Positions 1,296 through 7,028 of a stretch of 64,000 nt of DNA are shown here, piece after piece. The notes under the pieces were generated by a model. It was not told the origin of the DNA. It searched no databases and worked only from the letters and a program-made list of their open reading frames with translations. Numbering within the stretch: the stretch's first letter is position 1; each line of letters starts with the position of its first letter. Source of the stretch: Escherichia coli. GTDB taxonomy: Bacteria; Pseudomonadota; Gammaproteobacteria; Enterobacterales; Enterobacteriaceae. The DNA is taken from assembly GCF_965641715.1 (NCBI RefSeq), contig NZ_OZ282453.1, one strand, 5' to 3'. The translations under genes were made by a program, and so were the position numbers.

Positions 1296-2819
1296 TCACT
1301 CAACCACAACCTTCACCTTCGGTTTAGAAAGGATAATTTTGACCAGGTTTATGTATGTAACAGGTTTATAGAAATAATAACCCTGCTGAAATGTAATATT
1401 ATTTTGATTCAGATAGTCAAGTTGTTCTTTCGTTTCGACACCTTCAGCGACGATACTGATCGAAAGTTTACGCGCCAGATCCAATACACAATCCAGAATT
1501 CGGGTTGATTCTGGGTCTGCGTTGACGCGGCCAACGAAACTGTGATCAATTTTGATATAATCAATATGCAGGTCATGCAGATAAGAAAGCCCTGAGTAGC
1601 CAGTACCGAAATCATCCAGCGCGATGACAAAACCATTTTCATGCAGAATGTTCAACCGCTGAACCAGACTTTCATCAACATTTAATGGCTCACGCTCGGT
1701 AACTTCCAGAACGAGGTTTAAATCGCGGCGGGTAAAACTGTCACGGTAATTTAAGCACTCGTCGACAAACGTCGGCGAAATAATATGCGAGGCGCTAAAA
1801 TTAATTCCAATATGAAAACCTTCCGGCAATTTACTCGCGATAGCGTTCATCTGTCTGGCAACCTGATTCATCAGGCTTTGCGTAAGCGGAACGATTAATC
1901 CGGATTTTTCAGCAAGTGGAATAAATGCCGCGGGTGAAATATATCCACCGTGAGGTTGTTTCCAGCGGGCTAACACCTCAACTCCCCGCAATGTCCCTTC
2001 CCGACCATTCACCACTGGTTGGTAAAAAGGGACGATCTCCCCATTATTTATAGCCCGCCGCAGGATCTCTTCAGGCGTTGCGCTTTTATTGAAATACCTA
2101 TCTAGCAGGAAGGCAGCGGCGCAGGCGATTAACAGAATAAAGATCAAAATCCCAAAGCCTTTATCGATAAGTCTGTAGAAGCTAAAGAGTGGCGGCGAGT
2201 TAAAGATAATAGTGAAATGATATTTTGTGGAGTGAACCTTCTCGGTATAGGGATAATGTCCATTAAGCGTCATCACATCACCCGTAGGTCCAATAATGTC
2301 ATCTGCCACGCGTAATACATACCTTACCCCTTTCAAGGGTACATTAAGCGCCCCGCGAATATGCTGATCACTTATCGTAACCAAAATGCGCGTATCTGCA
2401 AATTGGCTCTGATAGAGCAGGATAGGTAATCTATTAACGGTGTCGATTGCCGGAGCCAACAGTAAATTACTGTCCGGGAAAACAGGAATACGAGACAACA
2501 GGACCCGATTCCCAGGCAGGGATGTACACCAGACTATTCCCTGTTTGAGAATGATGATTGTGCGCAGGTGAGGTTTCAGAGCTGCTTCAGTGCCAAGCTG
2601 ATATTGCTCCTCGAGGTCGCATTCCTTCCCGGCAATGTTAACCGCTGTTTGAGTCGCCTGTGACGCTTCTTCAAGTATATGATTGATATTGTTGGCGGCA
2701 TATCTTGCTCCCGCCAGGTACTCTGCTTTTGCGGAATACCAGAGCTGGATGTTCAAAATAGCGACACCGGTAATAAACAAGCATATCGCAACGAGGATGG
2801 GTATGAGTGTATTGCGCAT
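1296..2819 (-). CDS. pdeG: c-di-GMP phosphodiesterase, CSS-EAL type
   Basis: 521-aa ORF (1296-2861); N-terminal TM helix, periplasmic region, C-terminal EAL domain (EVLARW...QPVV, DDFGTGYSGLSYL); likely start MRNTLIPILV. Confidence 0.8.
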   Translation of the reverse strand: MRNTLIPILVAICLFITGVAILNIQLWYSAKAEYLAGARYAANNINHILEEASQATQTAVNIAGKECDLEEQYQLGTEAALKPHLRTIIILKQGIVWCTSLPGNRVLLSRIPVFPDSNLLLAPAIDTVNRLPILLYQSQFADTRILVTISDQHIRGALNVPLKGVRYVLRVADDIIGPTGDVMTLNGHYPYTEKVHSTKYHFTIIFNSPPLFSFYRLIDKGFGILIFILLIACAAAFLLDRYFNKSATPEEILRRAINNGEIVPFYQPVVNGREGTLRGVEVLARWKQPHGGYISPAAFIPLAEKSGLIVPLTQSLMNQVARQMNAIASKLPEGFHIGINFSASHIISPTFVDECLNYRDSFTRRDLNLVLEVTEREPLNVDESLVQRLNILHENGFVIALDDFGTGYSGLSYLHDLHIDYIKIDHSFVGRVNADPESTRILDCVLDLARKLSISIVAEGVETKEQLDYLNQNNITFQQGYYFYKPVTYINLVKIILSKPKVKVVVE

Positions 2820-3150
2820 TTGCTTGTCCCGGCCAAAGGGTTTAATACATGAAAATGCCATTCATTCGCTCGCGCTGGCATCTACAGAGAGCATGGTAGA
2901 TAGCATAAGAAATATCCACGCCGAAGATAAAATTTTCTCCATCTTGATCTAACCCATTAATTATTGAGCATAATGTAGGCAGTATAAAATAAATTAGGCG
3001 GGATATCAGGCGTCAAGAATGGAGAGCGAGAACTCTCCATTCTTGACACCTGATATTGCGGACATATTAAGAAAGCATAACGCCTGAAATGCTCACTTTG
3101 CATCAGCATGGTGATACAGCTGATGTTTATTCTAAAACCTTACTCAAGTT

Positions 3151-3399
3151 CTAAGAGAGCACGGATTCCCTGTCATTAATAATGATATCCGTTAGTGTAG
3201 TCTTATGCATTTCAATGTACTGCAATATTTGCAGATAGAGATCAGAAAGAATCACACTGGTTTCATCTTTTAAACGCAAGCGTAAAGCCTGATCAATAAT
3301 ATGACTATCAACATACCCATGCGTCATGAACACCTCCCTCTCGAGATTTTTAAACAAAGCACATTGAAAAATAAATCTCTCTGGGATTGAATTGTTCAT
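3151..3399 (-). CDS. ymgC: YmgC-like small protein
   Basis: ORF 3151-3462; internal start MNNSIPERFIFQ; synteny with ariR-ymgA-ycgZ. Confidence 0.55.
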   Translation of the reverse strand: MNNSIPERFIFQCALFKNLEREVFMTHGYVDSHIIDQALRLRLKDETSVILSDLYLQILQYIEMHKTTLTDIIINDRESVLS

Positions 3400-3510
3400 G
3401 TCAGCCTCGTAGAAATATAACCCAATAAAATTATGCTGTGTATAGTCTAAAGCGACAGACAAAAATAAGATGAATGAGTTTTCTATAAACTTATACTTAA
3501 TAATTAGAAG

Positions 3511-3777
3511 TTACATATCATCAGCTGTGTATCGCAACACGATTTCCAGTGTTTTTCTAATCACATCAGCTTTGAGAATATCACTTGTTGTTTCCAGGGA
3601 GTGTATCAGACTTAAGATAATATTTTTATTATTAACATTATCGCCTGAAAGCATTAAATTGGTGACAGCCTGCCCTAACACAGCTGACTCTTCTTCTAAC
3701 AAATTACCCGAACTGCGAAAGTAACTTGCTAACGCTTTATCAGTTATTGCATTATGAATTGTAGTATCTTCAAGCAT
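3511..3777 (-). CDS. ariR: Biofilm/acid-resistance regulator AriR (YmgB)
   Basis: 88-aa ORF; position and size in the ycgZ-ymgA-ymgB cluster. Confidence 0.65.
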
Positions 3778-3805
3778 GGTAACCTCTCATCTTACTTATG
3801 AAATT

Positions 3806-4078
3806 TTAATGTATTCTGTTTATTTTCTTACCATTGAACATACTTTTATTGTCAGCTGTCGCTGTTCTTCGGTTTGGCCCTCCTGAATCACTATTGCTAA
3901 AATCACGAATTATGCTGTCAATTAAATCTCGTCGGAAAGCATTTTCCTCAGCCGATTTCATTACGAGTAATTGCTTAATAAGAGTCTGCACCGAAAAATT
4001 TATCTTCATGCGCAGTATCTGGAGCACCGCCTGGCCAGTAATTTCATATTTTATACTTTCATTATCAGATGTCTTCAT
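3806..4078 (-). CDS. ymgA: YmgA, Rcs-connector small protein
   Basis: 90-aa ORF; synteny. Confidence 0.6.
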   Translation of the reverse strand: MKTSDNESIKYEITGQAVLQILRMKINFSVQTLIKQLLVMKSAEENAFRRDLIDSIIRDFSNSDSGGPNRRTATADNKSMFNGKKINRIH

Positions 4079-4120
4079 AACGACTTCATAGCTAACCTGT
4101 TAAATAATCAGGCTGTTGCA

Positions 4121-4357
4121 TTATTCAAAAAGCAACCCAATTAGTGCATTATAATGTTTCTGTTCCTCTTCCCCTGTCGCTTGTTCCAGTCGGCAAAGAA
4201 GTTTGGCACAAAGCGACTTTCGACTCAGATTACGTCCATCTTTCAAAATCTCAGTCACAATTTCCCCGAGAGTTTCCTGCTGAGTAGGCAAGTTAGCTTT
4301 TGCAAAGTAACGAGTGATTGCTCCCGCAGAATCTGAAGTCACTGAATTTTGATGCAT
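4121..4357 (-). CDS. ycgZ: YcgZ small protein
   Basis: 78-aa ORF transcribed divergently from bluF; synteny. Confidence 0.6.
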   Translation of the reverse strand: MHQNSVTSDSAGAITRYFAKANLPTQQETLGEIVTEILKDGRNLSRKSLCAKLLCRLEQATGEEEQKHYNALIGLLFE

Positions 4358-4670
4358 GCTACGCCTCTGTTAAAAATGTTAATCAATGTTAAGTGAGGTA
4401 ACAATAGCAAACTTGTACGAAATATGTGTACAGAATGATAAATTAATTTTTTGCAATTAGTGCTAATGCATACAAAACAATACGTTATGATAAAACATAT
4501 TGCATCATTTAACTGACAACCTATACAAGATTTATCGCCAACTCGTGTTCAACTTTTTCCATTTTTTATCAATGTAAAGAAACAGTTATGTTTTGGTATT
4601 AAAAGAAAGACACCGGAAGATATGTCTGTTACCGTCTTACTCTCGCCTCTCCCATTACCCTGGACAGTTA

Positions 4671-5882
4671 ATGCTTACCACCCTTATTTATCGTAGCCAT
4701 ATACGTGACGACGAACCTGTCAAAAAAATCGAAGAAATGGTTTCGATAGCAAATCGCAGGAACATGCAGTCTGACGTAACAGGGATCTTACTGTTTAATG
4801 GTTCTCATTTTTTCCAGCTTCTGGAAGGTCCGGAAGAACAGGTTAAAATGATATATCGGGCTATATGCCAGGATCCACGGCACTATAATATTGTTGAGCT
4901 GCTGTGCGATTACGCGCCTGCTCGCCGTTTTGGCAAAGCGGGAATGGAATTATTTGATTTACGCCTGCACGAGCGAGATGACGTTTTACAGGCCGTATTC
5001 GACAAAGGCACATCAAAATTTCAGCTAACTTATGATGACAGAGCGCTACAATTTTTTCGTACTTTTGTCCTTGCAACCGAACAATCAACCTATTTCGAGA
5101 TTCCTGCTGAAGACTCCTGGCTTTTTATCGCTGACGGATCTGATAAAGAACTTGATTCCTGTACCCTTTCACCAAATATAAACGACCACTTTGCCTTTCA
5201 TCCTATTGTTGATCCCTTATCGCGGCGGATAATCGCTTTTGAAGCCATTGTGCAAAAAAATGAAGACAGCCCGTCAGCTATAGCGGTTGGGCAGCGTAAA
5301 GACGGGGAAATCTACACAGCGGATCTCAAAAGTAAGGCGCTTGTATTCGCGATGGCACACACACTTGAGCTCGGTGATAAAATGATATCTATCAATCTAT
5401 TACCTATGACCCTGGTTAACGAGCCTGACGCAGTCTCTTTTTTACTTGATGAAATAAAGGCCAATGGTCTGGTGCCTGAACAAATCATCGTTGAATTTAC
5501 TGAAAGTGAAGTCATATCTCGGTTTGATGAGTTTGCCGAAGCGGTTAAATCGCTAAAGGCTGCCGGTATCAGTGTAGCAATTGATCATTTTGGCGCAGGT
5601 TTTGCTGGTTTGTTACTCCTGTCACGCTTCCAGCCTGACAGAATTAAAATCAGTCAGGAATTGATTACCAATGTTCATAAAAGCGGACCACGGCAGGCAA
5701 TTATTCAGGCGATCATAAAATGCTGTACATCACTTGAAATTCAAGTCTCTGCTATGGGCGTGGCAACACCAGAAGAGTGGATGTGGCTTGAATCCGCAGG
5801 AATTGAGATGTTTCAGGGGGATCTGTTTGCTAAAGCTAAATTGAATGGTATCCCTTCAGTTGCGTGGCCAGAAAAAAAATAA
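4671..5882 (+). CDS. bluF: Blue-light sensor BLUF-EAL protein
   Basis: ORF 4593-5882; BLUF domain (YRSHIRDD...GILLFNGSHFFQLLEGPEE) plus degenerate EAL domain; likely start MLTTLIYRS. Confidence 0.85.
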   Translation: MLTTLIYRSHIRDDEPVKKIEEMVSIANRRNMQSDVTGILLFNGSHFFQLLEGPEEQVKMIYRAICQDPRHYNIVELLCDYAPARRFGKAGMELFDLRLHERDDVLQAVFDKGTSKFQLTYDDRALQFFRTFVLATEQSTYFEIPAEDSWLFIADGSDKELDSCTLSPNINDHFAFHPIVDPLSRRIIAFEAIVQKNEDSPSAIAVGQRKDGEIYTADLKSKALVFAMAHTLELGDKMISINLLPMTLVNEPDAVSFLLDEIKANGLVPEQIIVEFTESEVISRFDEFAEAVKSLKAAGISVAIDHFGAGFAGLLLLSRFQPDRIKISQELITNVHKSGPRQAIIQAIIKCCTSLEIQVSAMGVATPEEWMWLESAGIEMFQGDLFAKAKLNGIPSVAWPEKK

Positions 5883-5990
5883 TTTTCAGCACATGATTTC
5901 AGTAAATCATCGTGAAAATGAATACGTTATGTTTTAATTTAATCCACATTAAAAATAATGTTTCATCCAATTTAGCTGAAATCTTATTTA

Positions 5991-6026
5991 TACTTTGTAC
6001 AATTTTAGCGTATATTGTACAAAGTA
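5991..6026. promoter_or_regulatory. Perfect 13-bp inverted repeat TACTTTGTACAAT-N10-ATTGTACAAAGTA upstream of bluR; candidate MerR-type operator
   Basis: Read directly: 5991-6003 and 6014-6026 are exact reverse complements separated by 10 bp, about 50 bp upstream of the bluR start. Confidence 0.4.
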
Positions 6027-6076
6027 TTATTGGGTCGTGTACAGGCGACGGAGATTTGTGACCGCAAGGAGGAATT

Positions 6077-6808
6077 GTGGCTTATTACAGCATTGGTGAT
6101 GTTGCTGAACGTTGCGGGATTAATCCTGTCACTCTCCGGGCCTGGCAACGCCGCTACGGTTTGTTAAAACCACAGCGCAGTGAAGGCGGACACCGACTCT
6201 TTGATGAAGAAGACATACAACGTATCGAAGAGATCAAGCGTTGGATAAGTAATGGCGTCCCTGTAGGCAAAGTTAAAGCATTACTGGAAACCACCAGCCA
6301 GGATACGGAAGATGACTGGAGCCGCTTGCAAGAAGAGATGATGTCAATTCTTCGTATGGCTAATCCTGCCAAACTACGCGCGAGAATTATTTCACTGGGT
6401 CGAGAGTACCCAGTAGATCAATTGATTAATCATGTTTACCTTCCTGTTCGCCAGCGTCTCGTGCTTGATCACAACACCTCCCGCATTATGAGCAGTATGT
6501 TTGACGGCGCACTAATTGAATACGCAGCAGCCTCGCTTTTCGAAATGCGCCGTAAGCCCGGTAAAGAAGCCATTCTGATGGCATGGAATGTTGAAGAGAG
6601 AGCACGATTGTGGCTGGAAGCATGGCGTTTATCATTGTCAGGATGGCACATTTCTGTTCTTGCTGATCCCATTGAATCGCCGCGCCCGGAACTGTTCCCG
6701 ACGCAAACATTGATTGTCTGGACAGGCATGGCACCAACGAGAAGGCAAAACGAACTTTTACAACACTGGGGTGAGCAAGGTTATAAAGTCATCTTTCATG
6801 CCCCCTAA
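6077..6808 (+). CDS. bluR: MerR-family repressor BluR (YcgE)
   Basis: 243 aa; N-terminal MerR HTH ([29 protein letters not shown]); synteny next to bluF. Confidence 0.85.
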
Positions 6809-7028
6809 TTTCACCTTTATCCCGCCCCTTAGACAGAATGTTATAATCTGAACCCACAACAGCATTTGTACCGGAGCTGGTCCGTTGCAAAATGCTCACC
6901 GGGAGAATTCAGGTAATCCCTCTATCACACTCTGTACATATCACAGCCAAAGGACAGACCAGATTGAAGTGGTAAAACCGATCGTGCACACTACGCAGTC
7001 TCACAACTAACAAGAGGTTATTATCCTG

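Follow-up and report, generated by a model that had tools for sequence, protein, structure and literature searches.

The bluR (ycgE) gene of Escherichia coli is preceded by a long inverted repeat, and the locus raises the question of which function, and which protein, this repeat might serve. A 64-kb stretch of E. coli DNA (the window) was analysed, in which ariR, ymgA and ycgZ lie on the minus strand and are followed on the plus strand by bluF and bluR. A first-pass annotation had described the repeat as an exact dyad just upstream of a MerR-family gene and proposed it as a plausible operator for BluR. The results below suggest that the dyad is probably an operator of the BluR/MlrA family, placed in the sigma-70 promoter of bluR, via which BluR represses its own transcription.

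The inverted repeat and the bluR promoter

The exact inverted repeat was found where it had been placed, at 5991–6026, and the sequence there reads TACTTTGTACAAT-N10-ATTGTACAAAGTA. The arm length of 13 bp was correct in that these 13 bp pair perfectly, but the true arms are 14 nt long, with one extra base on each side: ATACTTTGTACAAT and ATTGTACAAAGTAT are 100% complementary and are separated by a 10-nt gap. The repeat does lie upstream of bluR, 50–87 bp before the GTG at 6077 that is the start codon in the K-12 annotation, within the 194-bp spacer between bluF and bluR, and a Pfam MerR_1 domain was found in BluR, in agreement with the family named by the annotation. An 8-bp palindrome, TTGTACAA, is present inside both arms, so the arms are also direct repeats of each other, 20 bp apart; its two copies in the dyad are the only ones in the whole 64 kb. 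The gap measured from core to core (TGTACA to TGTACA) is 14 nt in E. coli as against 13 nt in most genera, giving a core spacing of 20 bp from centre to centre in E. coli, and neither of the two half-sites has a mismatch to the motif defined in PMC3509220.

Only two places in the window have a perfect inverted repeat whose arms reach 14 nt or more and whose loop is 30 nt or shorter. Chance expectation was obtained from 200 dinucleotide-preserving shuffles of the window, which contained a mean of 0.005 such repeats, with any at all in 0.5% of the shuffles. The second place is 3012–3047, where the sequence is GTCAAGAATGGAGAG-N6-CTCTCCATTCTTGAC and pairing continues imperfectly to about 3003–3056. 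The hexamer TGTACA has 11 copies in the window, 7 of them within 2523–6938.

Among the 4969 E. coli genomes that carry the 66-bp core at 5980–6045, 3844 are 100% identical over it, K-12 among them. The bluF–bluR spacer as a whole is 10 bp shorter here than in K-12 (194 against 204 bp); the indel falls in 5883–5979, upstream of the dyad, and the distance from dyad to start codon is unchanged.

The bluR gene is driven by its own sigma-70 promoter, here called PbluR (Tschowri, Lindenberg and Hengge 2012, PMC3509220), and primer extension in the same study located the 5′ end 54 nt upstream of the start codon. With the start codon of the K-12 annotation as reference, this published distance corresponds to a start site at 6023. 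The −35 and −10 elements (Table 1) were assigned by a consensus scan together with this start site, taken from the text of PMC3509220; the spacer between TTTATA and TATATT is 18 bp. The counting was checked at the ycgZ promoter, PycgZ, where the same rule puts the published ycgZ start 7 nt after a sigma-S-like CTATTGT and the footprinted BluR half-sites map over the −35 element and spacer, matching PMC3509220. The dyad as a whole spans −33 to +5, from the edge of the −35 element across spacer and −10 hexamer to beyond the start site; its right arm holds both the transcription start site and the three final bases of the −10 hexamer.

Table 1 Features of the ycgZ–bluF–bluR region (positions in the window; signed positions relative to the bluR start site)
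Feature	Position	Strand	Remarks
BluR operator in PycgZ	4413..4432	-	TGTACACATATTTCGTACAA on the ycgZ strand; GTAC cores 13 bp apart
bluF (ycgF)	4671..5882	+	BLUF-EAL antagonist of BluR; transcribed separately from bluR
−35-like hexamer TTTATA of PbluR	5987..5992	+	Consensus scan, inferred; fits the mapped start site
Dyad, left arm ATACTTTGTACAAT	5990..6003	.	−33 to −20 of PbluR
Left core half-site TGTACA	5996..6001	.	−27 to −22; nearly invariant across genera
Dyad, centre TTTAGCGTAT	6004..6013	.	10 nt
−10 hexamer TATATT of PbluR	6011..6016	+	Consensus scan; −12 to −7, canonical distance to start
Dyad, right arm ATTGTACAAAGTAT	6014..6027	.	−9 to +5 of PbluR
Right core half-site TGTACA	6016..6021	.	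−7 to −2
bluR transcription start site	6023	+	Primer extension, PMC3509220; coordinate transferred via K-12 annotation
Third TGTACA	6038..6043	.	+16 to +21; 22 bp past the right-arm core
bluR (ycgE)	6077..6808	+	243 aa; MerR_1, MlrA_helical and MlrA_C domains

The third TGTACA, downstream of the start site, is possibly an auxiliary half-site for BluR. It is polymorphic in E. coli: strain T309.Ta3 reads TGTAGA at this position, with the dyad itself unaltered.

Known BluR and MlrA sites and the architecture of BluR

BluR protects a site made up of GTACA/TGTAC motifs in PycgZ from DNase, and point mutations in this operator abolish both BluR binding and repression (PMC3509220). Comparison of the dyad with the ycgZ promoter region, which the first-pass annotation had proposed as a check, was favourable as to the core, TGTACA being common to both, but not as to the spacing, which is 20 bp in the dyad and 13 bp in PycgZ. 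The likeness extends to the type of half-site (TGTACA/GTACA), to the extended half-sites, which are similar (GTACAAGT and GTACAAAGT), to the overlap with a promoter in the same locus and to the presumed protein, BluR. The promoters differ, however: PycgZ is sigma-S dependent and has its operator over the −35 element and spacer, whereas PbluR is a sigma-70 promoter with the dyad over the spacer, −10 element and +1. The PycgZ operator has been footprinted and mutated, whereas the bluR dyad is a predicted site. When the whole window was scanned for pairs of TGTACA with up to one mismatch and gaps of 6–8 or 12–14 nt, the PycgZ operator and the bluR dyad were the only matches.

The MlrA box at csgD was described by Ogasawara et al. 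(2010) and is quoted in PMC3509220 and PMC9662190 as AAAGTTGTACA-N12-TGCACAATTTT. In its quoted form (AAAATTGTACA-N12-TGTACAATTTT) this box resembles the dyad in being a long interrupted palindrome with TTGTACA half-sites nearly two turns apart, but its gap is N12 where that of the bluR dyad is N14 (N13 in most genera). The spacing of the dyad equals that of neither proven site, PycgZ for BluR (13 bp) or csgD for MlrA (18 bp), and at 20 bp is nearer to the MlrA box. The MlrA box is also far upstream of the csgD promoter and activating, whereas the bluR dyad overlaps the core promoter. BluR shifts a csgD fragment carrying the MlrA box, at lower affinity than PycgZ (PMC3509220); since the box in that fragment is TTGTACA-N12-TGCACAA, BluR tolerates widely spaced half-sites.

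The closest solved relatives of BluR by sequence are CarH/LitR-type proteins. An AlphaFold2 model of BluR (pLDDT 89.8, about 60 at residues 71–80, the linker after the DNA-binding domain) matches Thermus thermophilus CarH from end to end (Foldseek E = 2e-10; 5c8f, 5c8e and 5c8d), while classical MerR proteins align with about the first 110 residues of the model only. Among full-length structural matches CarH ranks first, and the model predicts a CarH-like fold for BluR, consisting of a wHTH domain, a helical bundle and a Rossmann-like domain, and not that of a classical coiled-coil MerR. No paper naming MlrA together with CarH was found in the literature searched.

Each DNA-binding domain of CarH recognises an 11-bp unit, nnnnTnnACAn; the units share one DNA face and lie over −35 or −10 elements, and a single head-to-tail CarH dimer makes contact with repeats that are 22 bp apart and not adjacent (PMC9304148). 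TGTACA reads as TnnACA on both strands. Three TnnACA units are present in 5950–6076, all of them TGTACA and 20 and 22 bp apart, and no TnnACA units at 11-bp intervals were found in this stretch. CarH operators are three or four tandem 11-bp direct repeats, whereas the units at PbluR are palindromic and 20–22 bp apart; CarH-style tandem 11-bp repeats at PbluR were rejected, there being no unit between the cores. A further parallel, drawn in PMC3509220, is CarS, an acidic antirepressor that takes its repressor off DNA. CarH and CarA are B12-type photoregulators, whereas no B12 binding is known for BluR. In the 5′ UTR of ycgZ (4368–4392) the TnnACA-like hexamer TTAACA occurs three times on the ycgZ strand, 9–10 bp apart, between the ycgZ start site and the Shine–Dalgarno sequence; these units are not conserved in other genera.

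With the operators of classical MerR proteins (MerR, CueR, ZntR, SoxR) the dyad shares a regulator with a MerR-family DNA-binding domain, a position within the promoter and a longer-than-optimal spacer. The PbluR spacer is 18 bp, however, and not the classical 19–20 bp; the axis of the dyad falls at 6008/6009 (about −14.5), 7 bp downstream of the spacer centre, whereas the classical axis is mid-spacer; and the separation of the half-sites is about twice that of classical dyads. The BluR model is also without the coiled coil and effector domain typical of a classical MerR. PbluR and its dyad thus depart from the classical MerR-type promoter–operator in spacer, axis and regulator architecture.

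The flexible linker of the model could let BluR use both 13-bp and 19–20-bp spacings. By analogy with CarH, tethered domains of a BluR oligomer would bind two turns apart at PbluR and about one turn apart at PycgZ.

Conservation of the site in other genera

A scan was carried out with a BluR alignment, using one genome per species, and the best 80 of 590 loci were analysed. Of these 80, 68 are BluR-like and 12 mlrA-like. The BluR-like loci of Enterobacteriaceae (Citrobacter, Kluyvera, Enterobacter, Klebsiella, Pluralibacter, Buttiauxella and others) keep the ariR–ycgZ/bluF–bluR synteny, and those of Erwiniaceae (Pantoea, Erwinia, Mixta, Winslowiella) are without bluF or ycgZ nearby. The proteins of the mlrA-like loci are about 51% identical to BluR, and 11 of the 12 loci adjoin yehW and yehX.

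The pair TGTACA-N12-14-TGTACA, with up to one mismatch, was found at about −80/−60 of the start codon in 55 of the 68 BluR-like loci among the best 80 of 590. The gap in these 55 is N13 in 48, N12 in 4 and N14 in 3, so that the core spacing among orthologous sites is mostly 19 bp and ranges from 18 to 20 bp. Elsewhere in about 438 kb of BluR-like loci there were 24 other pair matches, 23 of them in the ycgZ–bluF control region, where the usual form is TGTACA-N7-TGTACA-N13-TGTATA; this leaves one comparable match outside these two regions. The consensus of the anchored sites is tcaagtTGTACAat.AaAaAa.a.TTGTACAa; in the aligned sites the information content of both TGTACA hexamers almost reaches its maximum, and the flanks have diverged. 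No TGTACA pair was found upstream of mlrA in any of the 12 mlrA-like loci among the best 80 of 590, nor in E. coli mlrA.

Two variations on this arrangement were seen in Enterobacteriaceae. In the Enterobacter cloacae complex (L040–L043, L046, L048, L052) the site upstream of bluR is TTATACA-N7-TGTACAA, at about −72 to −54, and its 13-bp spacing is the geometry of the footprinted PycgZ operator. In Pluralibacter and related Enterobacteriaceae (L033, L053, L055) an extra CGTACA-N6/7-TGTACA sits downstream of the N13 site, at about −39 to −24 from bluR, and L058 has a single CGTACA. PycgZ, for its part, carries three units in many genera, TGTACA-N7-TGTACA-N13-TGTATA, the third of which coincides with the −10 element (TGTATAAC); examples are L008, L009, L013, L035, L040–L043, L047, L048 and L057–L062, among others. 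Both the 13-bp and the 19-bp spacing are therefore present in one control region.

In Erwiniaceae most of the loci examined adjoin yehW and yehX, which is the position of E. coli mlrA (examples in Pantoea, Erwinia and Mixta are L010, L012, L014, L022, L029 and L030), and the gene at this position carries TTGTACA-N13-TGTACAA upstream. The encoded proteins are 65% identical to BluR, as against 53–58% to enterobacterial MlrA, with identity to BluR rising to about 90% in the DNA-binding domain; the BluR-like Enterobacteriaceae, Erwiniaceae and MlrA groups all share one recognition helix. As the site is present in Erwiniaceae without bluF or ycgZ nearby, the regulator gene is its sole constant partner. 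Such constant pairing of a site with the regulator gene downstream is the signature expected of an autoregulatory operator. The Erwiniaceae pattern fits bluR being the conservative duplicate of an autoregulated ancestor, and the comparison across genera suggests that one copy of the duplicated regulator kept an ancestral self-operator that its paralogue lost.

The position of the site relative to the promoter is not the same everywhere. A TAnnnT lies 16–18 bp (mostly 17) after the right-arm TTGTAC in 43 of the 64 loci with a pair, against a background of 3%. In most other genera, therefore, the right half-site TTGTAC probably doubles as a −35 element, with the left half-site upstream of it, a placement that would suit either activation or repression. 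E. coli is without the TAnnnT −10 element of the other genera, and the third TGTACA takes its place; the E. coli TATATT lies within a spacer that is one base longer, which agrees with the mapped start site.

Function of the dyad

The proposal that the dyad is a plausible operator for BluR is upheld, as a prediction, by the TGTACA shared with PycgZ, the overlap with the promoter, the occurrence at 55 of 68 orthologous loci and the absence at mlrA. As the operator encloses the core promoter in E. coli, the geometry there favours repression by occlusion. In the proposed mechanism, a BluR oligomer would use two of its DNA-binding domains, one for each TGTACA core (−27 to −22 and −7 to −2); the bound cores would be about two helical turns apart and on one face of the DNA, and the third TGTACA (+16 to +21) might perhaps be occupied by BluR as well. 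BluR lying on the spacer, −10 hexamer and start site would then exclude RNA polymerase. BluF, activated by blue light or cold, would remove BluR, so that PycgZ and PbluR were both derepressed, and newly made BluR would restore repression, a homeostatic loop for a protein that is toxic when overproduced. We infer BluR binding at the dyad, the sign of the regulation, the stoichiometry and the relief by BluF from the results above. Two published observations are in keeping with the mechanism, namely the toxicity of BluR overproduction and the co-induction of ycgE and the ycgZ operon in a PprM-expressing strain.

MlrA is under sigma-S and c-di-GMP control, and if the dyad served this paralogue instead of BluR, regulation of bluR by MlrA would link the curli switch to the blue-light pathway. 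The recognition helix of MlrA is identical to that of BluR, which makes MlrA a candidate binder of the dyad; the quoted MlrA box has the same TTGTACA half-site, with an 18-bp spacing that is nearer to the 20 bp of the dyad than is the 13 bp of PycgZ; and in Erwiniaceae the site accompanies positional orthologues of mlrA. The site nevertheless follows bluR-type genes and is missing from the promoter of mlrA itself, the Enterobacter cloacae complex has a PycgZ-type 13-bp site at the same position, and the N14 of the dyad exceeds the gap of the quoted box by 2 bp. MlrA is, moreover, an activator working from far upstream, and a site at −33 to +5 would occlude the promoter, unlike the action of MlrA. 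It is unlikely, on balance, that the dyad is a site for MlrA in place of BluR, and cross-binding of MlrA to it is possible. A different relationship, in which BluR binds the dyad but activates or fine-tunes bluR by positive or MerR-style autoregulation, is quite improbable. BluR acts only as a repressor, even at csgD, the right core in E. coli (−7 to −2) covers the −10 hexamer and start site, and the dyad axis at about −14.5 is unlike the mid-spacer axis of MerR-type activation; these points outweigh the suboptimal 18-bp spacer and weak hexamers given for PbluR by the consensus scan, the typical activator position of the site in most genera (at or upstream of the −35 element, near a weak TAnnnT −10) and the fact that the paralogue MlrA is an activator.

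Readings without a BluR-type protein fare less well. One of them takes the repeat as promoter sequence that is symmetric by chance, or as the target of some unrelated factor (H-NS or SrsR, for instance): AT content is high here, a genomic-SELEX study of RpoD lists the bluF–bluR spacer with H-NS and a constitutive RpoD promoter, the right-arm TTGTAC acts as a −35-like element in many genera, and SrsR (YgfI) regulates bluR. The published SrsR box, GCAGGTTTTGC, maps however to 5595–5605, inside bluF and about 480 bp upstream of bluR, and an SrsR site at the dyad was accordingly rejected; neither the H-NS entry nor the listed constitutive promoter maps to the dyad, and no fit of TTGTACAA to LexA, CRP or Fur-type consensus boxes was apparent. 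With a chance expectation of about 0.005 for the repeat, a hexamer equal to the BluR/MlrA half-site and a left core conserved as well as the right one, even though in those genera it is not part of the core promoter, chance or an unrelated factor is very unlikely. Another candidate, the degenerate middle half-site CGTATA (6009–6014; 13 bp from the left core), was rejected; it is not conserved in other genera and is for this reason taken as part of the −10 hexamer. That the repeat works as a hairpin, whether as a terminator or attenuator of bluF, a 5′-UTR structure or a DNA cruciform, is scarcely credible, even though it lies 108 nt past the bluF stop codon and RNA from 5980–6040 folds to a 14-bp stem of −16.9 kcal/mol (z = −5.0 against shuffles). 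The stem has 3 G–C pairs in 14, is followed by TATTGGGTCG and is without a U-run, a terminator scan reported no terminator at the dyad, and the bluR start site is within the right arm, so that the bluR mRNA is without the left arm. In 48 orthologous sites the complementarity beyond the TGTACA cores is at the level of column shuffles, with no compensatory change, the arm-to-arm distance among such sites varies from 12 to 14 nt, and the repeat has no Rfam match at E ≤ 1. A terminator or RNA hairpin was therefore rejected; as complementarity outside the core is not above shuffles, the conserved feature looks like a protein-binding site, and the six extra symmetric pairs of the E. coli dyad are specific to that lineage.

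BluR self-repression, the preferred reading, can be placed in a wider scheme that is put forward only tentatively. Here BluR and MlrA would be CarH-like oligomers, and not classical MerR dimers, with flexibly tethered domains that recognise TnnACA units (TGTACA in this case) along one DNA face and with two operator geometries, one of about 13 bp at PycgZ and one of about 19–20 bp at their own promoters and csgD. The self-operator would be ancestral to the whole family; bluR and the Erwiniaceae gene found at the mlrA locus would have retained it, and enterobacterial mlrA would have lost it. The promoter would have been rebuilt inside the operator in E. coli, where a one-base insertion would have created the −10 TATATT and the third TGTACA would have replaced the ancestral −10 element. 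The outcome would be a negative feedback loop relieved by light and perhaps also read by MlrA.

Repressors commonly autoregulate, and self-repression of bluR would thus be unsurprising in kind. If BluR does repress its own promoter, the blue-light/cold pathway, which runs from BluF and BluR through the Ymg proteins and Rcs on to curli and colanic acid, has a negative feedback loop that is missing from current models. Antagonism by BluF would then raise BluR synthesis, which would set a threshold, speed adaptation and bound the level of a toxic regulator. The family-wide consensus TTGTACA-N13-TGTACAA with its A-rich spacer should be usable to predict BluR/MlrA targets in other Enterobacterales. 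The literature searched, which excludes Tschowri et al. 2009 (Genes Dev), contains no description of the bluR dyad or of bluR autoregulation and no experiment (EMSA, footprint, ChIP or reporter) on BluR at the bluR promoter, and PPTP-seq offers no usable data for a bluR knock-down; PMC3509220, the source of the bluR start site and the BluR operator, does not comment on the dyad. The dyad is most likely, then, an autoregulatory operator of a characterised repressor; such feedback is of an ordinary kind and would be new for bluR in the literature searched.

A natural variant of the locus was also seen. In E. coli 2018-11-1BCC an IS1A element is inserted between the arms of the dyad, at the equivalent of about 6011, and separates the left arm and −35 element from bluR; the annotation marks the adjoining cyclic-di-GMP phosphodiesterase gene as a pseudogene that is incomplete. 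The strain is a naturally occurring disruption mutant of the bluR operator and promoter.
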